From Bilabrum cf. latius (taxonomy: Eukaryota), in assembly GCA_965178125.1 (NCBI GenBank), contig CBCXTV010000011.1, positions 1 to 36,372 of the forward strand: a DNA stretch of 36,372 bases, in the 5' to 3' direction. A program made the position numbers and the translations under genes. Position 1 is the first letter of the stretch; each line of letters opens with the position of its first letter. Positions 3,358-26,578 of the stretch are shown piece after piece. The notes beneath the pieces are model-generated. The model was not told the origin of the DNA. It ran no database searches and saw only the letters and a list, made by a program, of their open reading frames with translations.

Positions 3358-3496
3358 CTCGGTCTCTGCGCGACGCCGCGCGGGTCGCGGTCGCGCCGCT
3401 GCCCTTCATGGCGATTCCGCTCCTCAGGGCCAAAACTGTGGGGACGGGCCCCGGCCGCCGGAGAGGCGGCCATGGCGGTGGGAAAACCGCCGCCGC

Positions 3497-6549: not shown

Positions 6550-6760
6550 CCCGCCCCCGCGCGAATGGCCGGACCCGGGCCCGGGCGACGGGCCCGGGCC
6601 CTGTCCCGGCCCCGGGCCTGGACCCAAGGCCACGCCTCCCTTCCACTTCCACCCCCACAACCCCCCCACCACCCACCACCCCAGACCTCAAACCCCCACA
6701 ACGCCACAACCCCCCCCCCCCACCACCACCAACCGCCCCAACACCCCCCCCCCCCCCCCC
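6550..6760. repeat. Low-complexity C-rich tract ending in a long poly-C run; possibly poor-quality assembly
   Basis: CCCGGG-like repeats followed by C/A-rich runs and poly-C at 6744-6760. Confidence 0.7.
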
Positions 6761-7022
6761 GGTCGAGAGACACCTCCCGCCTGGCCTTCACGTTCATGAC
6801 TGCTTGAGCCGAAGCTGTACGTCACGAAGAAGGACATGACCACATAGCGTAGAACCATGGCTGCGCGCAAGGGAATGCTGGTTGTTTTCCGAAGTGAGCG
6901 CAAAGGAAGGCGCAGGTGAGAAGTGTCAAAGGGGCTATACAAGCGAAGAAACGCAAATGGCTTGCTGCAGCATTAGCCTGAGCCGTAGCTGCAAACAGGT
7001 TGACCAAATGCACTGCGAGTCT
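6761..7022 (-). repeat. 3' LTR
   Basis: Identical to 26317-26578 except two substitutions (CCGAAGTGAGCGC vs CCGAGGTGATCGC). Confidence 0.95.
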
Positions 7023-7035
7023 GGTGTGTCCTGGG
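7017..7035 (-). promoter_or_regulatory. Putative plus-strand primer site at the PPT position (non-purine CCCAGGACACACC|AGACTC)
   Basis: Abuts the 3' LTR; an exact 19-nt copy occurs at 20454-20472. Confidence 0.55.
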
Positions 7036-7512
7036 CGAGCTGTACGGCCCAAGACAATCAGACTGCAGGTCGTACATGCTCGAGCCCTGTGTGGCCCGAA
7101 CACTGAACGAAAAGGCACAAAGGGGTTGCGAGGACTGCGCGCGCAGCGCATCGGGCCCGCGTCGGGCCTCTCCTCGCACACAGACTGTACTGCGGTATCT
7201 GCCAGGCCACGCCTGGTGCATCCATTGAACAAAAGGCCGGGGTGCGACAGGAACCACCTGTCCACCCTAAAGGTTCCGACACTGCTGTCGGCTGTACTGT
7301 CACTGGTCGGTCGGGACTGCAGCACCTGCGGGCTTCAGCCGATCGGCATCCACACCGCGGCGCACAAGCGACGTCCGAAGGAGGGAAGCTCCACGGCATA
7401 AACCCACAGGCGTTCGTGCTGGCCCCGTGAGCCGAGCATCCGACTTTCCGACCTCAATGCCCCATTGAACTGAATGCTGAGATGGCTGAGTGAGAGCTGC
7501 CCCGAGTAGGCT

Positions 7513-10500
7513 TCAGCCGATCGGCATCCACACTACTCGGGGCTTCACCACGCTTCTTTCGGACTGCCCATCTGCAACCCAACATAGTCGTTCTAGGGAC
7601 CCCAGTCGGTGATCCTCGTCCTCCATCGGCGCCGTCGTGTCATTCGTCGGGGCCTTGCTCTCCCGGGCCCCAGTCTCGCTGGAGGGACTCGCACTGCTCA
7701 TTTCCTCGTCCTTGTCGTCGTCGTCTTCCTGACTGGTCAACGGCACTGTCTCCACCTCGTTCACAATGCGCTCCATGACGTGGTCCGCATGGCGGCCGAG
7801 CATGGCATGCATGATCGGCGGGAACTTGCCCGTATAGGCGCTCTGGTAGATCCGGGCGATGAACTCCGGGACCGTCATCATCGCGATGCGGTCGCCGACC
7901 TTCTCGGCGATCTCCTTGAACAACTCGGTCCCGATCTTGCTGATCCTCGTCATCGCCTCCTCGTCATGAAAGTCCCCGAATGCGGCCACGTCCTCGTCGG
8001 TCAGCTTGCCGTTGCCCTTCAAGGAGAAATACCACTTCGCGACGTCCGGATGCTCCCTGAGCCACTTGGCACTGACATAAGTCCCGCCGAACCATCGGGC
8101 ACGCGGGAAGGCCTTCTGGAGTCGCCGCTCAAGGAACCGATGGCGTCGGATGTAGGCCTGGATGAACGACAGATTGTCCCACAACACGGGGAAACTGATG
8201 TCCTGCCGCTCGTTCGGCCTGTAGAGGCACTCCTCGCGGCCGAGCTCGTCTCGCCTCACGAGGTGCTGGTAGTACGAACGCTTCCACTCTCCCTGTGACC
8301 ACTCGGTCTCCCAGTAGTTCCGGTACCTCTTCGGCACCTCCTCCTTCAGGGTCAGGTGCCATGGGAGCACGTGGTCATATGCGGGCTGCCACTGGAAGAA
8401 GATCTCCGGCACGTCCACTATGGCCTGGAGGTTGTTCGTGATGTAGGTCTCGATGGCCTCCTGCAAGACGATATTCTGGCGCACCGGCTTCCATGGCTTG
8501 TGGTGGACGGACTCGCTGTACCAATCACTGTCCGAACTGTCGTCGTCGTCACGTAGCGAGATGTGCGCGCTCCGGATGGCGGGCCACTTGGGTGCCCGTG
8601 CGCCCGCCTCGACACGTCGATAACATTGACCCGATGGCTTGCACTGGGCGGCCGTCCGAAGCACAACATTGCCCCTCTCGCGCTGGTCGTGCTCCTGCTG
8701 GGAGAACTTCTCGCGGAGCTCGCAAACACCGCGACAGGGCGTGTAGTAATCTGGAAAGCGGGACAACATTGAGAAGAAAGTTGAGGAAGTGGACTGCACT
8801 GGCCCGATTGCACACGTGCACTCCGCGGCCCACTTCTCCAAGTCCGGCTCGTCCCTGGGCTTCTCCGGGACGAAGTCTGCAAACGCGTTGGCCAATCGGC
8901 GCTTCTTCCGGCGGCCGTCGACCCAGAACTGGAACATGGATTTGGCGAGCGGCTCGACCATTGAACTTGATTCGAATTGGTATCCGATCGCCTTCGTCTG
9001 GTTCTTCGACATCTGGCCGAGGGAAGCAACAAAACCGCCGTTGGCTGGCCTCGCGTTGATTGCGTCAACTGTATCGGCAGGGCTGGTGAACCCAAACATC
9101 CCGGTGAGGAGTCTCAAGCCCTTGTTGTCCTTGTCGATCTCCCGGCCATAGGTGAGCGGTGGAAGCGGCCCGATGACCCCAACTGGTCCCATCGAGCCAT
9201 GGGGAATGCTCCACGGACCGCTCTCCTTCGCCTCGGTCATATAGCCGGTCTCAATCGGCTCATCCTGGCATCGACAATCATTGATCAGAAGTCTGTAGGA
9301 ATGGCATGTGTCCTCGTGGACCTTGGATGCCATGCGCTCCGCCATCTTCTCGGCCATCTCGCGGTAACGGAAACTCGTCGGCCTGCTCGCGGCGCGAGCA
9401 TATCCATTGATCCACGTTGTGCTCAGCGCCTCTCCGACCATCGTAATCGTCGACGAGCTCACCACCTGCTCCTTGCCGTTGCGCATTGCGACCTCGCCAA
9501 GGAGCTCTTTCTCATCGACCCGATAGAACTGGGAGTAGGCGCCCAGGCCGAACAACGAAAAGTCGTCCTTGTCGTACACGGGCCCTGGCTGTTGGTCGTA
9601 GCTCGTGAGGGCCCGGTGCTGGCGAGTGGCCTGGTCATGCTGCTTCTGCTTCTCTTCCTCAGCATTGATCGCGGCGTTCGTGGCACGCAAGGCTGCCCGC
9701 ACCTTCTGGCCGAAGCTCTTGTCGGGGTCAAGAGGATCGCAGACCAAGTCGGCAGCAAGTCCCACGCTGCCTTCAGTCTGTGTAAAGCAACACCCGTAGT
9801 CCGTGAGCTTCCGTCGCCTCAACTTGTGGATGCGGCCGGCCTCGCTGGCCTCGTACCGGCTGAAGACGTCCTGCTCTTTGCCATCCTTGTAGAACCTGCA
9901 ATTCTGGTTGTACAGCGCGGGGTTAAGGTCCGGCGTCGGCGCCACCTCACACATGATGTGGTAGGGAAAGCCGAACGGATCCTCCTCTGGGGTCCCGCGC
10001 TTGAGATCCTCGAGCACCTCGTCCTTGTCCTTCTCCTTGCCTTCGTCGAGCGGTCGGAGGAAGTTGACGTAGAGGCAGTAGCCCAAGATCCGCCTGCCAT
10101 TGACCTCGCGGCCATCTTGAAGCCGCTGCAAAGTCTGGCGGCCCTCTGGTGTCTTGAAGTGCGGAACGAGCTTCGGGTCTGCCCACCACTCGTCGTCCAA
10201 GTTCCACCAGTAGGGACGGATCGGGCACTCCCACTCCGCCTTCCAGTAGTCCCAGCTGGTCTCCTGCGACGGGTCGCCGTCGCCGAACAAGAACCATTCC
10301 TTCGGTGCTCTGAAACACACATCGGCCTCTTTCCCCGGCGGCACATAGGTGTTGTCACAGTCGGTCTCCCACTGCGAGCTGTCTCCGTTCTTGTTGCCGG
10401 GGATCTTGGCCACATGCCAGTAGGCCATTTCCGTGGCGTGGCCGAACCGCCAAAAGAGCCGGTCGTAGTGCTCGGAACGCCGGGTGTCGGTGGTGCCCTG

Positions 10501-13500
10501 CAAGGCACCTGCGTGGAGCCGAATCACCTCAATCTCGGTCTGTCGCGCACTGAAGGGATCGTCATCCTGCACGTCAGCGGGCTTCAGCCGATCGGCATCC
10601 ACACCGCTGACGGCGTCTCCCATTGAACCCATGGCATCTTCCCACACGTCGTCGTCGAACCGTTGGTAAGGCATCACAACGGCCTTCGGGTGCCCGCCAT
10701 CGTAGAACGAGTCCCGTATGCTCCTCTCGCGCGCCCGGGTGGTCTCGAAGCTCGTGCGCATCTGCTCAACCCTGGCACGCAGCGCGTGGGCACTGCCAAG
10801 CTGGTCCAACTGCAATCGCTGCTCAATCTCACCGGTCTTGACACGCTTGTACGCTGGCTCCTCATGCGACGACACGGTGACCATCGCCAGGAGCTCGCTC
10901 TGGTTGGTCGCCAAAGAGGGACACAACTGGGCCTTGCGTCCAAGCGTCCACTCATACCCCTGGTGGGCTGCAGCGGCCCACACACTGGCGCGCGTCGAGG
11001 GCGGATCATCGCGGTTGCGAACAAGGCCTCGGCGCGCACGCTCGACCTGCTCCTCGTCCAAGCGGTCGCGACTCTCATAGAGATGCTTCGAGTCTGCGGC
11101 CCCCACCGGGACGGTGGTGTATGGCATGACATCGTGGCGAATGAACGGTCGTGGGAGTTCGTTCTGGATTGGTGTGTCTGATGCGGAACCGGTGGGCTTC
11201 AGCCGATCGGCATCCACACCACCGGTCCCCTCTTCCATAGCCACAAGGTCCATGCCGTCGCCCTTCTGGTCAAGCAAGGGCGTGGCGCTGGTCGCACTCT
11301 GAGGGGCCAAGCGAGTCTCCAATGCTGTCGGTCGTTTCCGCGGTGCGCCCTGCTGACCGTCATCCCCAAGGGCGAGACTCGCAACCCTCTTCACAATCGC
11401 CTTGATGCACGAAGCCTCCGCCTCGCTGTGCTCGGACTCGTCGGTGTCGCCACCGGCTTGAATGCACGCCACCAACTGCTGCGCGTCCTCAGAGCTGATC
11501 TCGGCCTCATGCTCCACATGGTGGTTATCCGCCGCCTCGGGCGGAGGGGCTGTCGGCCTCGGCGCGCTGTTGAAGGCCGAGCCGTCGGGGAGCCTCGCAT
11601 AGTACTTGTCAATCCTCTGGTCGACCTCCTCGAGGCTCAGGCCCACGAGGCGCGAAAGCCACACCCTATCCTTGACAAAGTCCGGATGCGGCACCTCGAC
11701 ATTGAGCAAGCACTTGGGCGGAGAGCTGAGGCGCTCCTCTTTCTTCGTCAAGATCTGCCACAAGGAGGTGATGTCGCTCTGCTCCAAGCTGTGCGGATTC
11801 ATCCACTCCGTAGCGCGGGAGAAGCACTGCCTCGCCTTCTCCTTGATCGTGGCAACGTCCGGCGAGTCGGCCGGATCGATCGTCAAGCTCCGTTTCGGTC
11901 CCCACGGGAGATTCAACTGGTCCAACGCCGTCCCGATGCAGAAGGTATACACGAATCGGCACAGGGACACATAATCCTCCCGGAGCCACAAATAGGCCGC
12001 TGCAATCTCGTAGGCGTCGCCGATCTGTTCGTCTGTGGAGAACCAAGTGTCGAATGCATCAATGGCGTCGAAGATGTCCTGGAACCCACCATGTCCTTCC
12101 TCATATGCAGCGAGCAACCCGGACAAGCCTTTGTGCTCGTGCACGTACGTGTGGTTCTTGATCGCGACATAACGAGCCCGGGCCTTGAGAATGCCTGCCC
12201 GAAGGAGCAGCTCCGTGGCCGCCCAATCGACAATGAGCGAGCCCAGGTGGCTGAGACACTTGAGCTTGTCCTTGTGGCCCTCGTGACCGAACTTGTTCTT
12301 GAGATCGCACGCAACTCCAACCGCCAACAGGATGTCTTCATTGATCAGGTCTCTGGGGTCGTGCGCCCCTGCGAAATCCCGTAGGTGGATGAGCATTCTT
12401 CCCACTTCGAAGTCAATGTCAATCTGGCGCCTTCCATCCTTGATGTGCGTGTGCGCGTGCAGGAAACTCCTCAGGGCCCTCTCGCACTCCTCGTCGCAAA
12501 TCGGTTGACTGTACGCGAAGGGGTTCGGCTTGAACCAGTGGAGGACAACCATCAGCGTCTGCTCGATGGAAATGGAGCTCTCCAACACACTAGCCGTAAC
12601 CCATCCGCCGTCGTTCGTGCCCCATTGATCAATATGGTCGGCGAACGGATACGTCCTGGTGTTCTGCAGCGGGTTGTAACCGCCTGGGTAGAAGGACGTC
12701 GTCGGCGACCTGTGCTTGGCACGGACCGGGGGGAACATCGAAGCCGTGGCAGCACTTTCGGACGTATAGAAGGAGTGGCATCGCGGGCTGGGCTTCAGCC
12801 AATCGGCATCCGCACCAGCCTCGCCCATCGGCTCGTCACCGTCGCCGTCCTTCTGGCTTTCTTCCGGCTGCTTCGTGAGGTAGGCTTCATTGTTCACTTC
12901 TTCGGCGGTCTTCAACGTGAGTGCGAAGCGCTGGCTCCTTTCCTCGAGCACCTCTTCCTTCGTCTTGACGTCGAACAAGCCCTTGCCACCATTGGACTGA
13001 GGATCGAGGTGGTAGATGAGCTGGTCGAGCGTCGGGAGCGGCCACATGCCGCGCTGGAGGTGCTCCGCCCCTGGGATCATTCGATAGTGTAGCCTGCCGT
13101 TGCTGATCATCTCCAAGACAAGCCGTGCTCGAGCCCGCCACTTCTGACCCTTGTCGCCTGTGGCGGCCTCGTGAGCAAACTTGCGATTCCTCTTGTTGCG
13201 CTGGAAGTCGGCCTTGCTCTCGAACTGGCCCGGTCGCTTCCTCTGGTCGTAGCTGCCAGACCCGGAGACGACCTGAACGGCCTCCTGCTGCTGCACAAGG
13301 CTCAGCTCTGGCGACGAGAGACGCATGTTTGTTGGCGCGGCACAAGTCGTGGAGATGGCATTCCCGCCGGCGTCAATCAACTTCGAGCCGCTGGCATCGG
13401 TCAACGCGCCGGCCCTGTCATTGATCCAACCAACTTCGATCGCGTCGCGCGTGCCACCGGCTCCCTTCGGATGGTGGTTGTTCATCTCAATGGTATACGG

Positions 13501-14127
13501 CACGAGGAAGCTGTAGTCCAAATGTCGCCCGCCGCCGAGGGTGCTGCCCAAGTCGTGGTAGTGGCGGTCGACAAACCTCGTGCCCTCTGGGGTGACCTTG
13601 CCCTTGGCGACGACCGCCTGGTACTTCTGAGCCAAAAGACTCTCGGGTGCGCCATGTCCAAGCCGGGCCCTGGCGATCTGCTTGAGGTCCTGCCGCTTCG
13701 CAGAGCCGCTCTTGAACTCGTTCTCCAGGGTGCGCTTTCGGCTGAAATCATTGAACGGCGGGATGTCACCCTCATAGCTCTCGAGATCCATCACAAAGCC
13801 CGGCCTACATCGCACTGTCACCTTGGCGCACTTGGCCCGCAAGTCTTTGAAGATCCGCACATGGTCGTTGCCGTCGTGGAGAACGCGCGTGTTGAAGTCG
13901 CCTCCCTCGTCGAATCCAACGACGCACTCCGTCATGTCATTTTGCAAATCCACCGGGTCAATCTCATACTCGACAATGGCATCCCGGATAGCGTACTTGT
14001 CAACGTACTCCGGAGGCGTAGCCAAGAGGTAGACGTGGGTGATGTGCAAGTCCTCGGGGCGGAAGCCGTAGGTGGGAGACGTGCTGAAGCCCCGCCAAAG
14101 GTAAGCTGTTCGGCTTGGCGACCGCAC
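7513..14127 (-). CDS. Large extra ORF (2204 codons) downstream of pol; likely +1-frame continuation of ORF2; function mostly unknown
   Basis: 6.6 kb stop-free inside the LTRs, with no ATG at its start. The N-terminus (YLWRG...YGFRPEDLHITHVYL) appears to complete the ART-like domain begun in ORF2. Confidence 0.85.
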   Translation of the reverse strand: MRSPSRTAYLWRGFSTSPTYGFRPEDLHITHVYLLATPPEYVDKYAIRDAIVEYEIDPVDLQNDMTECVVGFDEGGDFNTRVLHDGNDHVRIFKDLRAKCAKVTVRCRPGFVMDLESYEGDIPPFNDFSRKRTLENEFKSGSAKRQDLKQIARARLGHGAPESLLAQKYQAVVAKGKVTPEGTRFVDRHYHDLGSTLGGGRHLDYSFLVPYTIEMNNHHPKGAGGTRDAIEVGWINDRAGALTDASGSKLIDAGGNAISTTCAAPTNMRLSSPELSLVQQQEAVQVVSGSGSYDQRKRPGQFESKADFQRNKRNRKFAHEAATGDKGQKWRARARLVLEMISNGRLHYRMIPGAEHLQRGMWPLPTLDQLIYHLDPQSNGGKGLFDVKTKEEVLEERSQRFALTLKTAEEVNNEAYLTKQPEESQKDGDGDEPMGEAGADADWLKPSPRCHSFYTSESAATASMFPPVRAKHRSPTTSFYPGGYNPLQNTRTYPFADHIDQWGTNDGGWVTASVLESSISIEQTLMVVLHWFKPNPFAYSQPICDEECERALRSFLHAHTHIKDGRRQIDIDFEVGRMLIHLRDFAGAHDPRDLINEDILLAVGVACDLKNKFGHEGHKDKLKCLSHLGSLIVDWAATELLLRAGILKARARYVAIKNHTYVHEHKGLSGLLAAYEEGHGGFQDIFDAIDAFDTWFSTDEQIGDAYEIAAAYLWLREDYVSLCRFVYTFCIGTALDQLNLPWGPKRSLTIDPADSPDVATIKEKARQCFSRATEWMNPHSLEQSDITSLWQILTKKEERLSSPPKCLLNVEVPHPDFVKDRVWLSRLVGLSLEEVDQRIDKYYARLPDGSAFNSAPRPTAPPPEAADNHHVEHEAEISSEDAQQLVACIQAGGDTDESEHSEAEASCIKAIVKRVASLALGDDGQQGAPRKRPTALETRLAPQSATSATPLLDQKGDGMDLVAMEEGTGGVDADRLKPTGSASDTPIQNELPRPFIRHDVMPYTTVPVGAADSKHLYESRDRLDEEQVERARRGLVRNRDDPPSTRASVWAAAAHQGYEWTLGRKAQLCPSLATNQSELLAMVTVSSHEEPAYKRVKTGEIEQRLQLDQLGSAHALRARVEQMRTSFETTRARERSIRDSFYDGGHPKAVVMPYQRFDDDVWEDAMGSMGDAVSGVDADRLKPADVQDDDPFSARQTEIEVIRLHAGALQGTTDTRRSEHYDRLFWRFGHATEMAYWHVAKIPGNKNGDSSQWETDCDNTYVPPGKEADVCFRAPKEWFLFGDGDPSQETSWDYWKAEWECPIRPYWWNLDDEWWADPKLVPHFKTPEGRQTLQRLQDGREVNGRRILGYCLYVNFLRPLDEGKEKDKDEVLEDLKRGTPEEDPFGFPYHIMCEVAPTPDLNPALYNQNCRFYKDGKEQDVFSRYEASEAGRIHKLRRRKLTDYGCCFTQTEGSVGLAADLVCDPLDPDKSFGQKVRAALRATNAAINAEEEKQKQHDQATRQHRALTSYDQQPGPVYDKDDFSLFGLGAYSQFYRVDEKELLGEVAMRNGKEQVVSSSTITMVGEALSTTWINGYARAASRPTSFRYREMAEKMAERMASKVHEDTCHSYRLLINDCRCQDEPIETGYMTEAKESGPWSIPHGSMGPVGVIGPLPPLTYGREIDKDNKGLRLLTGMFGFTSPADTVDAINARPANGGFVASLGQMSKNQTKAIGYQFESSSMVEPLAKSMFQFWVDGRRKKRRLANAFADFVPEKPRDEPDLEKWAAECTCAIGPVQSTSSTFFSMLSRFPDYYTPCRGVCELREKFSQQEHDQRERGNVVLRTAAQCKPSGQCYRRVEAGARAPKWPAIRSAHISLRDDDDSSDSDWYSESVHHKPWKPVRQNIVLQEAIETYITNNLQAIVDVPEIFFQWQPAYDHVLPWHLTLKEEVPKRYRNYWETEWSQGEWKRSYYQHLVRRDELGREECLYRPNERQDISFPVLWDNLSFIQAYIRRHRFLERRLQKAFPRARWFGGTYVSAKWLREHPDVAKWYFSLKGNGKLTDEDVAAFGDFHDEEAMTRISKIGTELFKEIAEKVGDRIAMMTVPEFIARIYQSAYTGKFPPIMHAMLGRHADHVMERIVNEVETVPLTSQEDDDDKDEEMSSASPSSETGARESKAPTNDTTAPMEDEDHRLGSLERLCWVADGQSERSVVKPRVVWMPIG

Positions 14128-18724: not shown

Positions 18725-21700
18725 TGCCTGCGAAGACTGCCTCGGCGAGCACCCGGTCGAACGGAACGTTCAATCCGTCCTCCTTGCACTGTGTCACGAG
18801 TCGGTGCACGCAGTCTCGGAAAAGAGCGCCCCGTCGTTCGATGTATCTCGCATGCGTTTCTTTGGGGCGCACCACCAGGCGCACACCATGGTGGTTCAAG
18901 AAAAGCTTCGCATCGTCGCTGCCGGAAATGCCTCCCTCACCATCCATGATGAGCTCCTTCGGTGGGCCATGCGTCTGGAACCAAAGTCGGGAAACGCCAT
19001 TGATCAATGTGGACGCCTCCTTGTTCGGAATCACCTCGGCCGCATGCCACCTCGTGCAGCGGTCGAGCATGTGGAGGATGGTGTGCCCAGAGATGAAGAG
19101 CAGGTCGCACTCGACCTGTTCATTGAACCGATCCGGAATCGCTGAGTTGCTCGCACTCGTCGGCCCTGGTCTGCTCCACTCGCGACACACCGTGCACGAG
19201 TGCACGATGCTGGGCACCAAGTCCAGTGCCTTCTGCGGGACTCCTGCTCGATGGAGCATGCGCGTGAGAGTCTGGGCCGAGGCATGCCACCACCTGACGT
19301 GCAGCTTGCGCAAGACACGGCGAATGACTGCCTCATTGTTCGTCCGGAGGGCCCGGACCGAATTGCCGATGTCAAAGTGGGTCCAATCCGGCTGCGGCGC
19401 CTCGCCGACAGCAACGTCGGCGTGGCGCGGCCTTTGAACACGTCGTGGTCCGCCTTGGCCCTGTCCATCGGCTGCATCGTCTGGCACCTCCACCACATCC
19501 GGAGGCGGTGGCGGCGCCGGCCTGTACTCAGCTGGTCCAGAGCTACGAGTGGTTAGGTCGGGCGAAGCGGCTTCAGCCGATCGGCATCCACGCGCTTCGC
19601 CACGTTGTGCACGATCTGCCGCTATCACACGCTCCTCGTCAGCCGTGCCCATGGGGCGGCCGTCAGGATCAACCGGGGCGAGCCTCGCCGTCGGCTCGCT
19701 CGTGTCAGGAGGTAGCACCTCATGTGGACGGTCGCCGCGGGCAGCACGGGTGACTGGCACATATCCGGAAGCAAATCGGCATTCTCCAAAGCGTAGCGTG
19801 TGGGCAGGATCGTTCCGTTGGAATCTGTCTCGGCATGCCTGACACCCTGGGTGGAACGGAACAACATGGGGCCACGCACACTGGCCCACAATGCGGCTGT
19901 GTGTTGGGTCGTCCATGGCAATGTTGCGCTGGCATGCCGGACACAGGCAAGCCTCGTTACCAGGAGGCGCACGTCGGTCTCGAGCTGGCTTCTGTCTCTG
20001 TCCGTGGGGTCGTGGCACCAGCTGCGGCCCTGCCTGCGGTGCTGCTCCGGAGCCGGAGCTGGAGGAGGCTGCTCCGACCGGATACACGGCAATGCTTTCA
20101 TTGATCTGTTGCTCGAAACCGACCTCGACTGGGTAGCGTCCCACAAGGAGTGCAGGGTCGCCACCCAACGAAGCGAGATCTTCACCGCAATCGTCGAAGT
20201 GGTCCTCGACGATCTTCGCCCTCTTCTTGGCAACGTGAGGGTTGCCCGCCTCTTTCTGCATCTTGCGTCGCTCCTTCTCCTTCTGCTTCGCTTCGGTCGG
20301 AAACGCCAAGACTTCTCGATCGTGCTGCTGCTCCAACTGGTTGCCACTGTGTCCTGCTTCTGGGGCCTGCTGCGTCTGGTTAGTCGTGTTCACGTGTAGG
20401 TGGTACTTGTTGGATGGCCTGCTGGGTCCGCCCGCGGGCGGGCTCGAACTGCTGAGTCTGGTGTGTCCTGGGACGCCCTGAACCGGACCGCCAGACGGTA
20501 CCACCTTCGCGCCCAAGAGGATCAACAAGGCAACCACAAGCAACGCAAAGATGCGGCGGAACATGCCGCATGTAGTCCCTCTCGTCGGAATGGAATCGCC
20601 ATCTGTATCATCTGGAAGGTGGCATGTGCTGGCGACGTACACCTGCCGGTTGTCGCCGCTGTCGGGGACGAAAGTGCGAATGCCTCGGCGGACGAAGCGG
20701 AAGATGTCCGTGCCATGTATCTTGTTCCAGATGTCAAGCCAAGTGTGTCGCTGGCTCTGTCGCCTGCCATCGGGCACCGAGAACACGGTGACGCTCGTGC
20801 CAGAATTGATGGCGGGCAGAACAAGACTCTTCAACGTGTGCTCGAACCCTGGGTTCATCCGTGGGGGGACCTCGATGAGCAGCTGCTTGCCCTGCCACGG
20901 GAGATGGTCCTTGTTGTGTGCGCGCATCGCATCGGACAAGCGGTGCAAGGCACAACCGTTCAACCCGTGGTCTTTACAGATGCTCAACTTCTGGCGGCTG
21001 CCAATCATGTGCGCGGTTCCCATCACAAAGAATGCACTGAACCCTGAAGCATTGAACACACTGCACGGATAGGCTGCGGAAGGCTTGTCAAAAAGGGCCC
21101 CACCAGCTTCAGCCGATCGGCATCCACATGGTGGGGCCTGCTCTGCCTCTGGCCACTCGGCGAAGTCCTGTACCGTGGTCTCGAGATGGACCGGGAGAAT
21201 CGGGGGCGCCTGCGGTGCCTGACACTTCGGCATGGTCGGCGCCACCGTGCGAAACGTCATCACCTCGCTCTCGGTCGGCTCGACCACGGTCGGCTGCTCG
21301 CTGCTCTCCTGCGTCAACAGGCTTATCTTCCTCGTCGCCAGGTTCTTCTCGCCAAAGTTGCTGCAGGGGAGCAGAAGGTGTCCACTGGGTGACGTCTCGA
21401 GCTTGAAGCTCTCCGTGCCGGGAGGCAAAGCCTTCGTCAAGTCATAGTCCCCTTCGCCGCAGAAATACATGCGCATGTCCTGGAGGTCAAGGATCGCACG
21501 GGCATTGCGCATGGTGGCCAGGCCCAAGAGGCCTGGCAGTTCCGAGTTCGGAACAATCGGGGTCGTGAAGTCACCCAAAATGGCATCGGCCCTGGTGTCG
21601 GACTTGAGCACAATGGGCAAACGCACGTCCTTGTTGCACCACTGCGATCCGTGGCCGACCCCTGAGACACGGAGGGGCTTCGGCCTGGTGTGCTCCGACG

Positions 21701-24700
21701 GGCGATGCCCGTGCTCAATCGCCTGAAGTCCGAGCTTTCGGGCCCATTGGTCACCGCAAAGATTGCCCACAGAGCCTGGGTCGATGAGGAGGGCGCTGCT
21801 GCCGTCAATGGGCCTGGTGTTCATGTGATAGTAGTCGCCTGCTCCACTGACCCGCAGCTGCGCGTCCGGGCAATGCATGTTCTCGCACGTCGTGTAGTGA
21901 GTGGCCTCGCCCACTCCTATCGGCGCCGTGGTGGTCGTCTGTGGCTCGTTCTGCGTCGTCGTCACCTCGTCCTCCTCCGCACTCGGGCTGAACTCGGGGT
22001 CCACCTGCAGCAACTGGAGTTCCGGCCTGAACAGTGCATATTGCCGAAAGGCCTGCTTGACCTTTGGAGTCCAAGCCGCAATCGGAGTGCGTAGGAGACC
22101 GTCGACTCGATGGGAGCCGGGCTCTGCAATGCCCGGCGGATGGACAGCCCATAGCACGGGGGCGTTCGCCAAGCTGTCACGAGAGTTCCCTTCAGAGTCG
22201 ACATAGGCCTTGGCATAGATGGCCTCGTTGCACTTCGGACAGACCAAGTAATGGAACAGAGAGTCGCACGCATCGGATCCGTGCAAGTGAGTGTCATAGT
22301 CCTCGATGGCCTGCTCATACTTGGTCCGAAAGGCATTGTACTCCTGCATCTCATACTCGCCGTAGCACTTGGCATGCAGACGGCATCCACATGAGAGAAC
22401 CACCGTGTTGGGCTCGGCGGACTCGTTGTGGCCATCGCCATGCTTCGCCTTGTACCACGGCTGCTGGCAGATGACACAGGAGTCGTGGTGGTGATCGTGG
22501 TGCTGCCCCTGCTCCCCAACAGGCGGTCCCGCCGAGCTGCCAGCGACGACGCTGTCACACAGAGGTGCCGGCGTTGCTGTCGCCGCGGGCACTGCATCCG
22601 CGCGGGTTGTGGCTCGCCGGACCTGCAAGGGGTGCTCCACCGGCGTGTCGGGGGCGGCACGCTTCTCCACGGACGATTCGCGGGCTTGCGACGACGACTG
22701 CGCTGATAGGCTGGGACTGCGCGAGGCACGCCTTCGGCGCGGCAAGTCCTTCTTCTTGTTCTCCTTCTGAAAGTGTGTCCTCCGACTCGCACGTCGTGAA
22801 GCTGGCGCCCGTGCCGGTGCGGGAGTACCTGCGGGCACGGGGGCTATCGCCGGGGCTGCCTGCTGAATCGACTCGGCTGCCGCACGGAACGTGGAGGACA
22901 CATCGAAGGTCGCGTCGTGCATCAAAACGTCCTGGCTCGCCGGCATGGGGGCCAAGATCGGGTACGTGATCGGCGTTTCGTCGAGCATGACTACGCTCCC
23001 AATGCCTGAGGTCGCTGCCGACGGCGGCGCGGCCGTAGGCGGACGGAGCTGTGGTCTCCACTCGGCAAGACCCGCACTGCCTTGGGCACTCGCAACCGGC
23101 GTCGGGGGCGCAATGGTATAGCTCTGCGTGGTGGTGCTCCCCAGGGCGCTCTGTGCCGCGCTGAACACATTGAACGCCACGTTCGTCAGAGCGCCCCACG
23201 CCTGGCCACCGACCGAGTGAATTGCAGATTGGCTGGCGGGGTTCAGCCGATCGGCATCCCCACCACCAGCCTGTCCGGCATCCACAGCGTGCACTGGCAT
23301 CGTCGGGCCAGCGAATGTGCCATACATTGAACGACCCGGAACCGGATGTGTCCTTTGCGTACTTACACTGCCGCTGCTGGCCGAATTCCTGTCTGGCGTA
23401 AAAGACACAGGTGCGCTGGGGGTGTACAATGGGATGCCCGTGGTGTTGGGATTGTCCACATGGTCTGCGGTCGGCGGCTGTGCGCTCCCGGCTGGCCTTA
23501 AGTTCGATGTTCTCGGGGCCGGTGTGGGCTGCGCTGGCTGGAGGCCGGCGCTCTCCACGCCCTGGTATGTTGGGCCCACAGCGGCACCGGAAGTCTGCAC
23601 GGAGGCCTGCACAAGGGTGCGCTCGTAGATTTCCTTGCCGATCTTGTCACGCCAGCATTGGCCCATTTCTGCAATGTAGTCACGAGGCTGCCGCGGTCCC
23701 TCGAACTGATCTACTCGCCGCGGTCCCTCAGACTGTTCCGCCTCTTGTTGTTGCCGCTGGAGGTCCCGGTTCGATCGGATCACCTCGGCCAGGTGAAAGC
23801 TGCCGGGCCGAACATTCAAATGGTCGGCGTCCCGGTAGAACTGGGGGGCGAAGTGTTCCTTCTTCTGCTTGGTGTGCTTGAAGAGATCCAACACTGTGTC
23901 GCTCACTCGGTCGGCTGCTCGGTCTGTGCTGGCAATCAGGTGCCTCTCGCCATCGTCACGATGGCAGTAGCCCTGCTGCCGTTGGTAGCCGTCCAAGCGC
24001 TTCCTCTCGAACAAAGTCGGCCAGTGTGGGAGCTCCTGATTCATGGTCAGCGACTGATACTTCTTGTCCCAGGTGTATGTTTCCTTCTCGTCCAACTTGC
24101 TGGTGCCACTGTCGCCATCAGCGTACGACGGCTGCTGACTGCTTGCACTCGCGGGGAGATAACCTGCCCTCACCAGACTCGGCACTGAGCCACTGCTCGT
24201 GGAGCTGGCGTGTGAGGCGCCTGCGTCGTCGCTGTACTGGGAGTTCGTCATGAAAACCTGGCGAAAGTCACCAGATCCAGGGGATTGTTCAACCTGGAGG
24301 TGGAAAAGGACTGTGGAATGTCCATTTCCCACTGGGGCACGCGCGAGCTCTTCGTCGCTCCAGAGAGAGCCGGACGTGTCGACCGGCCTCGCCATGTGTT
24401 CATTGACCATGAAACCCTGGAACATCGGATTGCGCTCGGCGGGCCCTTGCGAGAAGGAAGATGCCGAACCTGGGCCCATCTGCCATTGAGACCACGAAGT
24501 CCCACCATAGTGCGTGAGCTGATCGTTTCCGGGTTTTCCTCCTTTCCCACCGGCCTTCTGAGGGCAGCGAGCGGCAAAGTGATCCTCAGACCCACAGATG
24601 CGGCACGTCATCACCTTCCCATCGGTTCCAACAGGGTTCCGCATGCGCCCGAAACCTCCTGCTGAGGAAGACTTGCCTTTTCCTTTGCCTTTGCCCTTTC

Positions 24701-26414
24701 CTTTGCCGAACAGGAAGGTGCCGAACTCGTGCATGTCCTGGGGGTCGCTGGCGTCTGCTAGGTACTGATGATGTCGCCGAGTGAACGGTTTTCCTTGGTA
24801 TGGTCGTCTCTTCTGGAAATGCCCGGCCTGATCGCGACGGAACTTGAAGAAGCGGAAAGCCCTGCGAAACCTTCTGGTCGGGCGCCGAGTCGCCCGGCGC
24901 CAGTCTCGCTTGGCCTTTCGGTACTGGAAGTAAAGCTGTTCGTCGCGCGTCTCGGCCTGACTGGGGTCGATATCGTCCTCACCATAGTCGGAGGAAGTGG
25001 CCGACGAGGACTCGGCGTCCGTCTCATACAACTCCCCATGGGTCATCAGGACGACCACGCTGTCCTCATCGGGCTGCGGTGGCGCAGATCCCTTCGAATC
25101 GGCGACCGGAAAGACTGATGCATATGAAGGCTGAGCGGCACAAGCTGACGGAGCGGCTTCAGCCGATCGGCATCCACACGCTCCGTCTTGCACATTGACC
25201 TGATTCCATGTCATCGGAGTCGGCTCCTGATAGAACGCCGGTGCGCATGCCTGGGTCCTCTCACTGTGAGTACTGTTGACAAGCATCGGAGGCGGCTCGG
25301 CCTGAAAGTAGCGAGATGCATCATGGCGCGCAGGTCGGGCTCGGCTCCGTCCATCGTGGAAGGTCTGCGTGACGCCGACAAGGGGGTTGGATGCATTCTG
25401 GTCCTGCATGCGGGCATAGACCTTGATGTCCCTAACCATGTTCGTGTATCCGGCATGTGTCGTGGGCAAGACATTGTCCGGGAGGTACTTCGTGACCTCC
25501 CACAAGGCATGCTGCGGGAGCCCACTCAAGCGGATCATCTGGTGGCAGTGGTGGCGCCACAGGAAGAACTCCTTCCCTTCTTCGAGCTGTCGCATCCGAA
25601 GATATTCGTAGCGATCGTGCATCTGTTCAAACGTCTCCGTCGGATGCCGCTCGAATCGATGGAGCTCGTCGTCAATGGCGTCCTGGTCGTCGGCCGCCCT
25701 CGGTGCGTACCTCTCAACAAGGTCAGAGATGATCATTGACACGGGGTCCTGGACATGGCCAGTCGTCTCATTCGTGCGGCCCCTGACGAGGTCGGTCGTT
25801 CGCCATCTCTGTCGTAGGAGGGCGGCACTGCCCTGCAAGCCGTTGGCGATGATGATGCCCAGCTCGTGATGCTGGTACCGGGTGACGCCGAGCCAACGCT
25901 GCAGGTCCTCGATGTATTCCCGCAAGGTGTAGCCGCGGTCCGCGGGATTCCAGGAAGGCGGCGCAGTCAAACTGCCCAACGTGATCTGACGCGCCTGCCT
26001 GTACGGGATCGCGTAGGAGACGATGGAGAGGAGTGCTGCAAGCACCGCTGCGTGAGCCATCCCCAACATGTAGTGCACACGGATGTGGGTGCCGTCGGAG
26101 GGGTGAATGCTCTGCTCAGCCTTCGGCGTACTTTCCGACGTCCGGTCTGTCGTGCGGCTCGCCTCCGTCGCGTCTGTCAAGTATTGCTTCATTGAACCGT
26201 CATCGTCAAGGATGCCGCCGGGTGGTGAGCCCGGCGGCTCAGACGTCTCCGAAGTCGGAGACGAAGGGGTGGATCGGTAGGAGAGAAAGTCCTGCAACCA
26301 CGCTGCTCCGCTACCAGGTCGAGAGACACCTCCCGCCTGGCCTTCACGTTCATGACTGCTTGAGCCGAAGCTGTACGTCACGAAGAAGGACATGACCACA
26401 TAGCGTAGAACCAT
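18423..26414 (-). CDS. Copia Gag-Pol part 1: Gag with CCHC knuckle, RING-like finger, aspartic protease, Cys/His modules, integrase (HHCC + DDE core)
   Basis: APPSWNP...YIEDLQRW (Gag); CRICGSEDHFAARC (24564-24605); RING-like 22230-22478; LLIDPGS...GLLG protease (~21470-21800); LHVRWWH...CTVC, VECDLLF, LIMDGEG, YIERRG, TPYNAVYGR integrase. Start uncertain (ATG at 26414 in the LTR, or 26192). The frame switches near 18652. Confidence 0.92.
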   Translation of the reverse strand: MVLRYVVMSFFVTYSFGSSSHEREGQAGGVSRPGSGAAWLQDFLSYRSTPSSPTSETSEPPGSPPGGILDDDGSMKQYLTDATEASRTTDRTSESTPKAEQSIHPSDGTHIRVHYMLGMAHAAVLAALLSIVSYAIPYRQARQITLGSLTAPPSWNPADRGYTLREYIEDLQRWLGVTRYQHHELGIIIANGLQGSAALLRQRWRTTDLVRGRTNETTGHVQDPVSMIISDLVERYAPRAADDQDAIDDELHRFERHPTETFEQMHDRYEYLRMRQLEEGKEFFLWRHHCHQMIRLSGLPQHALWEVTKYLPDNVLPTTHAGYTNMVRDIKVYARMQDQNASNPLVGVTQTFHDGRSRARPARHDASRYFQAEPPPMLVNSTHSERTQACAPAFYQEPTPMTWNQVNVQDGACGCRSAEAAPSACAAQPSYASVFPVADSKGSAPPQPDEDSVVVLMTHGELYETDAESSSATSSDYGEDDIDPSQAETRDEQLYFQYRKAKRDWRRATRRPTRRFRRAFRFFKFRRDQAGHFQKRRPYQGKPFTRRHHQYLADASDPQDMHEFGTFLFGKGKGKGKGKGKSSSAGGFGRMRNPVGTDGKVMTCRICGSEDHFAARCPQKAGGKGGKPGNDQLTHYGGTSWSQWQMGPGSASSFSQGPAERNPMFQGFMVNEHMARPVDTSGSLWSDEELARAPVGNGHSTVLFHLQVEQSPGSGDFRQVFMTNSQYSDDAGASHASSTSSGSVPSLVRAGYLPASASSQQPSYADGDSGTSKLDEKETYTWDKKYQSLTMNQELPHWPTLFERKRLDGYQRQQGYCHRDDGERHLIASTDRAADRVSDTVLDLFKHTKQKKEHFAPQFYRDADHLNVRPGSFHLAEVIRSNRDLQRQQQEAEQSEGPRRVDQFEGPRQPRDYIAEMGQCWRDKIGKEIYERTLVQASVQTSGAAVGPTYQGVESAGLQPAQPTPAPRTSNLRPAGSAQPPTADHVDNPNTTGIPLYTPSAPVSFTPDRNSASSGSVSTQRTHPVPGRSMYGTFAGPTMPVHAVDAGQAGGGDADRLNPASQSAIHSVGGQAWGALTNVAFNVFSAAQSALGSTTTQSYTIAPPTPVASAQGSAGLAEWRPQLRPPTAAPPSAATSGIGSVVMLDETPITYPILAPMPASQDVLMHDATFDVSSTFRAAAESIQQAAPAIAPVPAGTPAPARAPASRRASRRTHFQKENKKKDLPRRRRASRSPSLSAQSSSQARESSVEKRAAPDTPVEHPLQVRRATTRADAVPAATATPAPLCDSVVAGSSAGPPVGEQGQHHDHHHDSCVICQQPWYKAKHGDGHNESAEPNTVVLSCGCRLHAKCYGEYEMQEYNAFRTKYEQAIEDYDTHLHGSDACDSLFHYLVCPKCNEAIYAKAYVDSEGNSRDSLANAPVLWAVHPPGIAEPGSHRVDGLLRTPIAAWTPKVKQAFRQYALFRPELQLLQVDPEFSPSAEEDEVTTTQNEPQTTTTAPIGVGEATHYTTCENMHCPDAQLRVSGAGDYYHMNTRPIDGSSALLIDPGSVGNLCGDQWARKLGLQAIEHGHRPSEHTRPKPLRVSGVGHGSQWCNKDVRLPIVLKSDTRADAILGDFTTPIVPNSELPGLLGLATMRNARAILDLQDMRMYFCGEGDYDLTKALPPGTESFKLETSPSGHLLLPCSNFGEKNLATRKISLLTQESSEQPTVVEPTESEVMTFRTVAPTMPKCQAPQAPPILPVHLETTVQDFAEWPEAEQAPPCGCRSAEAGGALFDKPSAAYPCSVFNASGFSAFFVMGTAHMIGSRQKLSICKDHGLNGCALHRLSDAMRAHNKDHLPWQGKQLLIEVPPRMNPGFEHTLKSLVLPAINSGTSVTVFSVPDGRRQSQRHTWLDIWNKIHGTDIFRFVRRGIRTFVPDSGDNRQVYVASTCHLPDDTDGDSIPTRGTTCGMFRRIFALLVVALLILLGAKVVPSGGPVQGVPGHTRLSSSSPPAGGPSRPSNKYHLHVNTTNQTQQAPEAGHSGNQLEQQHDREVLAFPTEAKQKEKERRKMQKEAGNPHVAKKRAKIVEDHFDDCGEDLASLGGDPALLVGRYPVEVGFEQQINESIAVYPVGAASSSSGSGAAPQAGPQLVPRPHGQRQKPARDRRAPPGNEACLCPACQRNIAMDDPTHSRIVGQCAWPHVVPFHPGCQACRDRFQRNDPAHTLRFGECRFASGYVPVTRAARGDRPHEVLPPDTSEPTARLAPVDPDGRPMGTADEERVIAADRAQRGEARGCRSAEAASPDLTTRSSGPAEYRPAPPPPPDVVEVPDDAADGQGQGGPRRVQRPRHADVAVGEAPQPDWTHFDIGNSVRALRTNNEAVIRRVLRKLHVRWWHASAQTLTRMLHRAGVPQKALDLVPSIVHSCTVCREWSRPGPTSASNSAIPDRFNEQVECDLLFISGHTILHMLDRCTRWHAAEVIPNKEASTLINGVSRLWFQTHGPPKELIMDGEGGISGSDDAKLFLNHHGVRLVVRPKETHARYIERRGALFRDCVHRLVTQCKEDGLNVPFDRVLAEAVFAGNALLTVNGSTPYNAVYGRVPHVLPSAGCGRGVGPGKDQSGAQHSYDDGRRAAQSSVGRRSRLLPGAIDQGRLWMVWPSHCGRPDQPVPGHDHIAMVAGIV
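20454..20472 (-). promoter_or_regulatory. Internal exact copy of the PPT-position/LTR junction (candidate central plus-strand primer)
   Basis: GAGTCTGGTGTGTCCTGGG is identical to 7017-7035. Confidence 0.55.
26305..26316 (-). promoter_or_regulatory. Primer-binding site, initiator-Met-tRNA type (TGGTAGCGGAGC)
   Basis: Begins immediately after the 5' LTR with TGGTAGC, complementary to the ...GCUACCA 3' end typical of eukaryotic tRNA-iMet. Confidence 0.85.
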
Positions 26415-26578
26415 GGCTGCGCGCAAGGGAATGCTGGTTGTTTTCCGAGGTGATCGCAAAGGAAGGCGCAGGTGAGAAGTGTCAAAGGGGCTATACAAGC
26501 GAAGAAACGCAAATGGCTTGCTGCAGCATTAGCCTGAGCCGTAGCTGCAAACAGGTTGACCAAATGCACTGCGAGTCT
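26317..26578 (-). repeat. 5' LTR
   Basis: Direct repeat of 6761-7022, followed by the PBS on the minus strand. Confidence 0.95.

Follow-up and report, generated by a model that had tools for sequence, protein, structure and literature searches.

Cis-acting RNA structures are well known from retroviruses, where stem IIB of the HIV-1 RRE, the packaging-signal stem-loop SL1 and the CTE of type D retroviruses serve the export or packaging of unspliced RNA. In the purine-rich loops of such RNAs, the helix is widened by G.A and G.G-type pairs and recognised by nucleocapsid or an arginine-rich peptide. The packaging signals of retroelements usually reside in the 5' leader. Short palindromic units can also be found inside genes, as is the case of the Rickettsia palindromic elements (RPEs), which are in frame and translated. 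Packaging signals dispersed through a genome have been described for MS2, satellite tobacco necrosis virus, picornaviruses and the HBV pregenome under the name of packaging-signal (PS)-mediated assembly, with one coat protein presumed to bind per viral stem-loop (PMC6281560 and PMC7793301). In Amoebophrya, hairpin introners with family-specific conserved inverted repeats and 3-5-nt direct repeats are spliced out (PMC7789003). Whereas LTR retroelements are known to carry their cis-acting RNA signals as single structures in the leader or untranslated regions, we describe here a giant copia-type element in which a hairpin is repeated every ~1.5 kb through coding sequence. A first-pass annotation of this DNA had remarked that no such system was known in copia elements, and a full-text literature search indeed found no published report of such hairpins in these elements.

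The window, i.e. the whole stretch of 36,372 nucleotides that was analysed, contains a 19.8-kb Ty1/copia-type element of which the minus strand is the sense strand, and all 13 hairpins lie between its LTRs (Table 1). The giant copia-type host proposed in the first-pass annotation is borne out by the LTRs and the domain motifs: two LTRs surround an internal region, a PBS-like sequence, GGTAGCGGAGC, which we take to resemble tRNA-Met primer sites, adjoins the 5' LTR, the reverse transcriptase (RT) is of the RVT_2 type, and the order of motifs along ORF1 and ORF2 (CCHC, DPGS, HVRWWH/DRCTRWH, HVDD, SDAAF) is the expected gag-PR-IN-RT-RH. The Pfam matches to CCHC, rve and RVT_2 are each under the curated cut-off (18.5 bits for a cut-off of 32.6 for rve, 29.2 for a cut-off of 31.6 for RVT_2), and no Pfam family matches ORF3. 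A total of 174 relatives were found; many among the 120 listed carry a precomputed PF07727 match. The giant copia-type clade probably resides in dinoflagellates.

Table 1 Features of the element and its hairpins, numbered from the start of the window
Feature	Position	Strand	Description
5' LTR	26314..26578	-	265 bp; 98.9% identity to 3' LTR
ORF1	18423..26498	-	gag-like (Arg-rich stretch + CCHC knuckle), RING-like Cys/His motif, protease DPGS, integrase
Hairpin 1	25147..25187	-	core 25156-25178; 9-bp basal stem; GCRSAEA, gag region; 64.6 bits
Candidate Gag binder region	24564..24932	-	arginine-rich stretch aa 523-578 + CCHC zinc knuckle aa 632-645; putative binding
Hairpin 2	23231..23271	-	core 23240-23262, TGG..ACC variant; 9-bp stem, one G.U
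Hairpin 3	21096..21138	-	core 21106-21128; 10-bp stem; GCRSAEA
Hairpin 4	19561..19601	-	core 19570-19592, CGT variant; 9-bp stem; upstream of integrase
ORF2	14000..18724	-	integrase end, RVT_2-type reverse transcriptase (HVDD), RNase H
Hairpin 5	17640..17681	-	core 17650-17672; 6+3-bp stem, one bulged A; upstream of RT
Hairpin 6	16084..16124	-	core 16093-16115, TGG..ACC variant; 9-bp stem; RNase H variable loop
Hairpin 7	15498..15546	-	core 15511-15533, TGC..AGT variant; 11-13-bp stem, G.U pairs
Hairpin 8	15196..15236	-	core 15205-15227, loop AAUC; 9-bp stem
ORF3	7513..14127	-	2204 aa; family fragments are sole relatives
Hairpin 9	12783..12824	-	core 12792-12814, loop GAUU; 6+3-bp stem, bulged A; ORF3; kept in fragments P0124, P0126
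Hairpin 10	11185..11229	-	core 11196-11218; 11-bp stem, G.U; ORF3; kept in P0125, P0128, P0129
Hairpin 11	10572..10612	-	core 10581-10603; 9-bp stem; ORF3; compensatory change in P0134
Hairpin 12	7499..7543	-	core 7510-7532; 11-bp stem; core TGA ends ORF3 (WMPIG*)
Hairpin 13	7322..7363	-	core 7332-7354; 4+5-bp stem, one bulge; 3' UTR
3' LTR	6758..7022	-	265 bp; 98.9% identity to 5' LTR

The 23-nt core of the hairpin, TGTGGATGCCGATCGGCTGAAGC, has 13 matches in the window when up to 3 mismatches are allowed, 8 of them exact. All are on the minus (sense) strand, none of the 13 being in antisense orientation, and all begin at exactly the starts given in the first-pass annotation; no core match was obtained in 100 shuffles of the sequence. 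The copies are spread over 17.9 kb, and 12 touch ORFs. A covariance model built from the 13 copies, a check that the annotation had proposed, scores them at 53-67 bits and, within the window, picks out no other sequence. The next match, in a search of both strands of the window and of 7 related loci, reaches 14.4 bits, so further or decayed copies are absent there, and the 16.5 kb of flanks outside the element contain no hairpin by either core match or covariance model. Hairpins occur at about one per 1.5 kb, with a spacing of ~1.5-2.1 kb in the 5' half of the element, and are placed somewhat regularly (coefficient of variation of 0.60, where random placement gives 0.93; P=0.04); the even intervals between the six 5'-most hairpins concern a subset chosen post hoc. 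There is no hairpin in the 5' leader of the element, which counts against a role in packaging.

The hairpin structure is maintained by selection on the sense strand; this holds for every copy and extends to related lineages. Each module is made of two parts, a basal helix of free sequence, different in each copy, and a shared, conserved head consisting of a bulged U, a G-C pair, a U.G pair, an internal loop of GGA/GAA and U.U, a 3-bp helix and a GAUC tetraloop. RNAfold returned this fold, which the first-pass annotation had inferred, as the minimum-energy structure of 13/13 copies, with energies of -22.7 to -30.5 kcal/mol, and the sense strand folds more stably than the antisense in every copy (mean difference of 3.6 kcal/mol). 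The basal inverted repeat is unbroken over 9-13 bp in 10 copies and is interrupted by one bulge in copies 7332, 12792 and 17650; copy-specific stems and three single-bulge copies had been correctly noted. In all, 91.3% of pair cells are paired as against 69.7% in shuffles, none of 500 shuffles reaching 91.3%, and sliding the 3' partners by 1-3 columns lowers the paired cells to 24-52%. Eleven of 15 pairs differ among copies on both sides, and the covarying core pair recognised earlier is pair 3:22, which is U-G in 8 copies, G-C in 3 and C-G in 2. The nine inner basal pairs of the 10 unbulged copies form 90 cells, comprising 87 Watson-Crick pairs, 3 G.U and no A.C; what had been claimed as mismatches in copies 11196, 15511 and 23240 are indeed G.U pairs on the sense strand only.

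Such very stable folds, together with the ~1.5-2.1 kb spacing in the 5' half, would suit a role in reverse transcription of a very long template, as programmed pause sites, as sites of strand transfer or recombination, or as internal plus-strand priming sites, and one contig (run X6) which joins 11221 to 12838, hairpin to hairpin, is a possible recombinant. We consider such a role very unlikely: a pause site would need no conserved 23-nt head, and the hairpins are not polypurine tracts, which, rather than hairpins, are the plus-strand primers known to us.

Within the ORFs, the core is translated as DADRL[KN]P 8 times and as GCRSAEA 3 times; a third frame, WMPIG*, provides the stop of ORF3 at copy 7510, while copy 7332 lies in the 3' UTR. 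Thus, 11/13 copies are translated, the ORFs of 2691, 1574 and 2204 residues reading through 4, 4 and 3 hairpins, one frame each. The two frames reported earlier (DADRLKP and GCRSAEA) are therefore both used, to which the third must be added. Because three frames are used and all core codon differences are non-synonymous (11/11, with 0 synonymous), the constraint is on nucleic acid and not on protein, as the annotation had argued. Each hairpin site forces ~14 otherwise meaningless residues into the polyprotein. Most of the hairpin lengths (41, 43, 45 and 49 nt) are not divisible by 3, and the ORFs run through the hairpins; an introner or hairpin intron was rejected on these grounds.

Related elements own dispersed sense-strand hairpins of their own, which are new here. 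The L220/L241 element (RT ~59% identical) carries 6 copies, all in sense orientation (6/6) and every one with a stem of its own; the 2.3-Mb bin to which it belongs contains no further match. These hairpins retain G-N-GGA...GAA-N-C with a covaried apical helix: two apical pairs that are G-C and C-G in our element are both A-U in the L220 type, which also has G-C in place of U.U; G1, GGA, C9, U12, G14 and GAA are invariant. The letters G5A6/G19A20 (letters only, pair geometry aside) are the same in 19/19 copies of the two lineages, and an alignment of hairpin 21106 with L220 hairpin 2083 puts both in one codon frame (GCRSAEA vs GERSFEA). L222 (RT 37% identical) has 10 copies, 10/10 on the sense strand, with a different conserved apical module; its sense strand is more stable in only 6/10 copies, which counts against the Gag-binding explanation that we favour below. 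The loop is GAUC here; L220-type hairpins have GUUC and those of the L222 type vary, so dimerisation via a palindromic GAUC loop loses support. In three further relatives, L221 (12.7 kb), L223 (5.5 kb) and L224 (3.2 kb), the dispersed motif was not found; therefore, the hairpins are not required by the whole clade.

Two readings of the module can be weighed against this comparison. Firstly, the motif contains a 10-bp palindrome, GCCGATCGGC, which, like the inverted repeats, could also form on DNA; the integrated element would then contain a cruciform or a protein site, or the unit would be a MITE-like palindromic insertion. A DNA-level feature is scarcely credible, however, since 29/29 copies in three lineages point the same way, even though the core, read from the sequence, has no stop codon in any frame of its reverse complement, and since the wobble pairs exist on the sense strand only. 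Terminal repeats are not conserved, the stems differing in every copy, and flanking direct repeats average 1.4 nt vs 1.6 nt at 2000 control positions; a MITE was rejected accordingly. Secondly, the head might be a kink-turn bound by a protein of the L7Ae/Snu13 family: GA opposite AG, then U.U and G-C beside a helix, match the non-canonical stem of box C/D letter by letter, a likeness that takes in the U4 5' stem-loop and L7Ae sites. We judge this most improbable. The loop is symmetric without a 3-nt bulge (4x4 in 13/13 copies here and 3x3 in 6/6 of the L220 type), a G-C pair stands in place of U.U in that relative, Rfam families give no match (0 at gathering score in the window), and no L7Ae-like domain was detected in the three ORFs (Pfam, E up to 1). 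The kink-turn analogy drawn in the first-pass annotation thus fails as family membership, the defining asymmetric loop with its 3-nt bulge being absent as judged from the minimum-energy fold and pair 3:22. In E-value mode, the best Rfam match of hairpin 7510 is F6 sRNA, at 20.5 bits for a gathering score of 46, and involves the stem letters of that copy only.

Retention was also followed at orthologous sites. Fragment relatives that are 62-91% identical keep the core at these sites, and the core peptide is kept in 6/6 diverged ORF3 fragments spanning a hairpin. In one fragment, P0134, V to A and D to G changes at paired second codon positions amount to a compensatory U-A to C-G replacement. 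These observations bear on the possibility that the hairpin is a selfish cassette, copying itself by template switching of the reverse transcriptase at a strong hairpin and tolerated in permissive loops with no role for the element. Such copying at the RNA level would give the sense orientation automatically, and some relatives are without hairpins. Hairpins 2 and 6 are near-duplicates of the whole module (16082-16136 vs 23229-23283, 96% identical over 55 nt); L222 and P0109 (73% identical) have 6 sites in common and differ at 2 others by clean 8-9-residue indels, and GDPGNRIPK is common to three P0109 sites. The hairpin-to-hairpin contig mentioned above points weakly the same way, its shorter side being 20 nt. 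Yet a purely selfish origin appears quite unlikely: 13/13 copies are intact and none is decayed, all basal stems have diverged with 87/90 cells still Watson-Crick and sense-strand wobbles as the only exceptions, and orthologous copies keep the core, with one compensatory change. Intact copies, paired though diverged stems and orthologous retention therefore indicate purifying selection on each copy and not birth and decay. Uniform heads as against fully diverged basal stems within one element present a concerted-evolution problem.

Our best guess, which we advance tentatively, is that the hairpins are candidate multivalent binding sites of Gag for RNA packaging. The 13 hairpins would be cis-acting structured modules of the full-length sense RNA, with the head as the place where a protein would dock. 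The likeliest such protein is the Gag of the element itself, the arginine-rich stretch and CCHC knuckle of which would read the purine loop; the Gag region of the L220-type element has the same arrangement of stretch and knuckle. At about one per 1.5 kb, the sites would nucleate the coating, selection and condensation of the ~19-kb RNA into particles. The modules would occupy protein loops or linkers tolerant of ~14 extra residues, and may be gained and lost as discrete in-frame units. Heads that are uniform within one element and different between lineages are a point against this explanation, as are the Pfam matches under their cut-offs, the lack of a dispersed motif in L221, L223 and L224 and the post hoc choice of the evenly spaced 5'-most subset. 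The same structural evidence would also be expected if the hairpins recruited a host factor instead of Gag, to bring a long RNA lacking introns out of the nucleus, in the manner of CTE-type elements, to protect it from decay or from internal trans-splicing or polyadenylation, or to localise it. The GGA/GAA platform common to two lineages with ~59% RT identity is what a conserved host partner would demand, and multi-copy retroviral export elements are known (PMC4829213). We nevertheless regard a host factor as unlikely, the apical helix and loop differing by lineage and the L222 head being wholly different, a pattern better explained by a partner that the element encodes and that co-evolves with it.

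Should Gag bind the hairpins, dispersed packaging signals would extend from RNA viruses to retrotransposons, with a bearing on the selection and condensation of very long genomic RNAs. A broader proposal, speculative and on balance doubtful, is that throughout this giant copia-type clade in-frame hairpin cassettes are dispersed Gag packaging signals, spread and lost as units, with heads co-evolving with their binder into a private code per lineage. If true, it would establish packaging-signal-mediated assembly in a retroelement for the first time and offer capsid-limited elements a way to reach ~20 kb. Other heads on the same design in relatives provide a natural swap experiment for RNA-protein specificity. 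The motif is also a compact marker for a very abundant repeat family and flags eukaryotic contigs misbinned into bacterial MAGs.

How, then, does this locus compare with the known systems? As short hairpin-forming units inside genes, the modules resemble the Rickettsia palindromic elements and the Amoebophrya introners (PMC7789003), but unlike introners they have copy-specific inverted repeats and no direct repeats, ORFs read through them, and all are in sense orientation within one retroelement. With the HIV-1 RRE and SL1 and the CTE they share a purine-rich internal loop; those elements are, however, single or few in copy number and mostly located in leader or untranslated regions, whereas here 11/13 copies are translated, in three frames and at ~1.5-kb intervals. 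The likeness to PS-mediated assembly, as portrayed in PMC6281560 and PMC7793301, lies in many stem-loops throughout the genome, coding sequence included, on the packaged strand, with a short motif on stems of free sequence. The corresponding features found here are stem-loops dispersed on the sense strand, also in coding sequence, and a shared head on variable stems. Two differences stand out: viral packaging signals are degenerate and share few loop letters, while the 23-nt head is identical in 8/13 copies here, and PS systems belong to icosahedral RNA viruses, while the present hairpins are carried by a Gag-bearing LTR retrotransposon.

The hairpins lie in a 19.8-kb minus-strand element that is delimited by two direct repeats and filled by three long minus-strand ORFs, the features of which are listed in the table below. 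That this is a giant element of the copia type, as proposed in the first-pass annotation, is supported by its domain order, its motifs and 174 relatives of its RT-RNase H part, with Pfam matches to zf-CCHC, rve and RVT_2 that all score under the curated cut-offs. The best of these relatives is 58% identical; among the matches listed, the only named ones come from Symbiodinium and Amphidinium, at ~39% identity, from which we infer that the host is a dinoflagellate or belongs to a related group. ORF3 has no Pfam family and no near-length homologue: its residues 1-1200 are matched only by 18 short predicted proteins of the same family (30-91% identity), and its C-terminal 1024 residues have no atlas match. 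One extra base in the window is absent from most contigs of four sequencing runs and, once it is removed, ORF2 and ORF3 become one frame, which suggests an ORF3-pol fusion in intact copies. Judged by its sequence, the window copy is damaged, its integrase-RT linker being shortened and frameshifted relative to that of L220, a locus encoding a related element. The same linker in L220 holds a hairpin (4461, hairpins being named by core start), and an imprecise deletion may have cost the window copy a fourteenth hairpin here. A RING-like Cys/His motif, unusual for copia elements, is also seen in L220 (frame 1), and the related protein P0099 carries Pfam zf-RING domains. No Pfam family was found in the 10 flank ORFs examined.

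Coordinates of features in the window and, in the last row, in the related locus L222
Feature	Position	Strand	Description
27-bp tandem repeat	1519-1720		7.5 copies; flank 73-77% G+C
C-run	6700-6757		long; adjoins 3' LTR
Direct repeats	6758-7022 and 26314-26578		98.9% identical over 265 bp
ORF1		minus	2691 residues; Arg-rich stretch, CCHC knuckle, RING-like Cys/His motif, DPGS protease motif, integrase
ORF2		minus	1574 residues; RVT_2-type reverse transcriptase with HVDD, then RNase H
ORF3	7513-14127	minus	2204 residues; downstream of RNase H; no recognisable family
Extra base	14103
GGATGCCGGAC	16126-16136 and 23273-23283	minus	adjoins hairpins 16093 and 23240 on their 5' side
Integrase-RT linker	~18560-18640	minus	~25 residues missing; frame changes there
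RING-like motif	22218-22478	minus	CVICQ...CGCRLH..C...CPKC; between gag and protease
GKGKGK-coding repeat	24672-24707		12/18-bp repeat past CCHC knuckle; length varies between runs, many loose contig ends
L222 open frame	3-3734	plus	1243 residues, open 5' end, 4 hairpins; ends 10 nt before 2035-residue gag-pol frame

When searched with the pattern TGTGGATGCCGATCGGCTGAAGC, allowing up to 3 mismatches, the window returned 13 matches, 8 of them exact and all on the minus strand (none in 100 shuffles). These are the 13 cores reported in the first-pass annotation, all recovered, and each is seen, in 40 nt of context, to be enclosed by an inverted repeat of its own, as described there. The 13 copies were made into a covariance model (47 columns, 15 pairs), which was run with filters off on the window and seven related loci, i.e. 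79.5 kb on both strands. The 13 copies scored 53-67 bits while the next match, at 14.4 bits, was the antisense of one of them. The copies thus number exactly 13, with no decayed ones besides; the model detected no copy in the LTRs, in the 16.5 kb of flanks or anywhere on the plus strand. A descriptor made up of basal stem, GGA, small hairpin, GAA and basal stem gave 12 minus-strand matches and 0 on the plus strand, versus 0.3-0.4 in shuffled sequence. A general scan for hairpin stems of at least 8 bp returned ~100 per strand, the GC-rich window being too noisy for it to reveal other families. Spacing of the copies is somewhat regular (coefficient of variation 0.60 versus 0.93 for random placement, P = 0.04), and the six 5'-most copies, a set chosen after the fact, are 1536-2134 nt apart. 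The GGATGCCGGAC segments beside two of the hairpins are partial second copies of the core's GGATGCCGA and may be remnants of tandem hairpins.

The fold put forward in the first-pass annotation is the minimum-energy structure computed by RNAfold for all 13 copies (-22.7 to -30.5 kcal/mol). Standard pairs form in 91.3% of its 195 pair cells, compared with 69.7% in column shuffles, none of which (0/500) reached the observed value, and pairing drops to 24-52% when the 3' partners are slid by 1-3 columns. Both sides change in 11 of the 15 pairs, and the covarying core pair that had been pointed out is indeed found, at pair 3:22 (U-G in 8 copies, G-C in 3, C-G in 2). The nine inner basal pairs of the 10 unbulged copies comprise 87 Watson-Crick pairs, 3 G.U and 0 A.C in 90 cells, and every copy folds more stably on the sense than on the antisense strand, by a mean of 3.6 kcal/mol. 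A site acting at the level of DNA is, in our estimate, hardly credible. The likeness to kink-turns drawn in the first-pass annotation did not hold up, the defining 3-nt bulge being absent, and we regard a true kink-turn as very unlikely. A hammerhead reading of the GA-helix-GAA arrangement was discarded by eye since the CUGANGA box is missing. No Rfam family matched the window at gathering scores, and the F6 sRNA obtained in E-value mode is a chance match to the stem of one copy.

Is the constraint on protein or on nucleic acid? Eight copies of the core encode DADRL[KN]P and three encode GCRSAEA; one copy reads WMPIG-stop, the end of ORF3, and one is in the 3' UTR. Among the eight copies in the DADRL frame, 11/11 codon differences are non-synonymous and 0 synonymous, which argues against protein-level selection, as this would give the opposite. 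The earlier claim that the constraint acts on nucleic acid, not protein, is thus upheld by the several frames used and by the nature of the codon differences. The reverse complement of the core, read directly from the sequence, is free of stop codons in every frame and, therefore, the single orientation of the hairpins is not forced by the ORFs. Nor are the hairpins introns, since they are 41-49 nt long, mostly not multiples of three, and the ORFs run through them. Direct repeats flanking them average 1.4 nt versus 1.6 nt in controls. A MITE or introner was rejected: conserved terminal repeats and direct repeats are both lacking, and the hairpins, to judge from the ORFs, are not spliced and, in the window, occur in a single orientation.

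Profile searches identified seven relative-encoding contigs in the prokaryote genome collection and none among viral contigs; searches for close-relative loci with the predicted protein P0002 found none in either collection. The contigs of loci L220-L224 and L241 come from bins named Rickettsiales, Planctomycetota, Weeksellaceae and 'uncultured bacterium', and are probably mis-binned eukaryotic DNA. The hairpin comparison uses relatives' DNA from two bins. L220 (RT 59% identical) contains GGAGAACGTTCGTTCGAA four times and L241, on another contig of the same bin, twice; all 6 copies are on the sense strand, each with its own flanking stem, and the 2.3-Mb bin holds no further match. Across these and the 13 window copies, G1, G3-G4-A5, C9, U12, G14 and G18-A19-A20 are invariant. 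Between the window and L220 types, two apical pairs change from G-C to A-U and from C-G to A-U, and the U.U becomes G-C. The platform common to both lineages is G-N-GGA...GAA-N-C on a small hairpin, the sequence of which is lineage-specific. Hairpin 21106 (GCRSAEA) and L220 hairpin 2083 (GERSFEA) align column by column in the same codon frame, and one gag linker contains both hairpin 25156 and the first L241 hairpin, ~13 residues apart (in an alignment of 29% identity).

In the more distant L222 (RT 37% identical), a different head, YGR-UCCCGGNNACAGGAUC, occurs ten times on the sense strand, with a 1-2-nt bulge, a 5-bp helix containing G.U or A-U, and an 8-nt loop with two free letters, on basal stems of 4-7 bp that are all different. 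The extra coding capacity of this lineage is upstream of gag. The peptide encoded by the L222 core is the DPGNRIP repeat of the predicted protein P0109, which is 73% identical and has six hairpin sites in common with L222; two sites found only in P0109 are clean indels of 8 and 9 residues. One RNase H loop bears window hairpin 16093, the L222/P0109 hairpin and a repeat peptide in P0015, and one RT finger loop bears L220 hairpin 5917 and a QPTE repeat of P0004. Two lineages have different heads at sites that look orthologous. That the hairpins are a selfish cassette spread by template switching is unlikely. L221, L223 and L224 have no dispersed k-mer above background, which means that the hairpins are not universal in the clade; GTCAGCTGAC, present three times in L221 with weak flanking stems, is ambiguous.

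Dispersed peptide repeats are seen in P0004 (ggQPTEa, 8 times), P0109 (gDPGNRIPk, 7 times), P0015 (gTLPEa, 5 times), P0107 (GHPE, 5 times) and P0030 (DPLV, 5 times), the hairpin cores of P0004, P0015, P0030 and P0107 being presumed from peptides alone. Among the 120 of 174 RT homologues listed, a 4-mer recurs at no fewer than four dispersed sites in 4, and none has the DADRL or CRSAE peptides. Back-translation in search of inverted repeats, as applied to the peptides on either side of the dispersed motifs in P0004, P0109, P0015 and P0107, is non-discriminating, giving 10.1 for the window's own hairpins versus 8.9 for mismatched controls. In the ORF3 fragments that span a hairpin site, the core peptide is kept in 6/6 while the flanks diverge. 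Two changes in P0134, V to A and D to G, fall on second codon positions that are paired in hairpin 10581, i.e. U-A to C-G, and P0129 (62% identical) has U3 to C, loop G to A and A21 to U, each compatible with the fold. Together, these results show a structure of the sense-strand RNA (or plus strand) that purifying and compensatory selection maintains in each copy, at orthologous positions and across several lineages.

Contigs matching window 7023-26294 number 58,408 in run X1 and 2,927, 4,566 and 244 in the three other runs (X5, X6 and X8), pointing to a very abundant element family; each of the four runs has a different coded organism label. Among the matches listed, no presence/absence polymorphism was seen at hairpins, and none of the best-supported 40 substitutions falls in a hairpin, a count that is uninformative. 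In one X6 contig, the upstream edge of hairpin 11196 (11221) is connected to a point just past hairpin 12792 (12838), with 17 other letters between. This single contig, the shorter side of which is 20 nt, may be a hairpin-to-hairpin recombinant.

What might the hairpins do? The head is common to all copies of one element and every basal stem differs; a conserved head on a free stem would be the anatomy of a protein-binding site. Since the head differs between lineages, the partner would be expected to co-evolve with the element. The obvious candidate would be Gag, whose Arg-rich stretch and CCHC knuckle occur both in the window and in the L220 type. Binding by a host export or stability factor, to be weighed against a head that changes from lineage to lineage, appears rather unlikely. 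One site per ~1.5 kb along a 19-kb RNA, at somewhat regular spacing, suggests nucleation of packaging or condensation, and we tentatively favour, at somewhat less than even odds, dispersed Gag sites that would nucleate packaging or condensation of the ~19-kb RNA. A role in reverse transcription we hold to be improbable. Dimerisation through the palindromic GAUC loop of the window type is weakened because the loop is non-palindromic in the relatives.

Outside the family, the exact 18-nt core occurs in at least 120 metagenome, 98 prokaryote and 1 viral stretches, with a single match in each. Of the 219 matches listed, 126 are without any pair flanking the core, and a stem-like flank, consisting largely of wobbles, is seen at only one locus (L033); as stems are lacking, we read these matches as chance. 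The introners of Amoebophrya have conserved inverted repeats with direct repeats at the intron ends (PMC7789003), an anatomy unlike that of the window hairpins. Hairpins go unmentioned in the main text of the Symbiodinium Ty1-copia paper. The first-pass annotation knew of no such system in copia elements and, in agreement, repeated in-ORF hairpins in LTR retrotransposons were not found described in the full-text literature searched. The hairpins would belong with cis-acting RNA signals and dispersed packaging signals.
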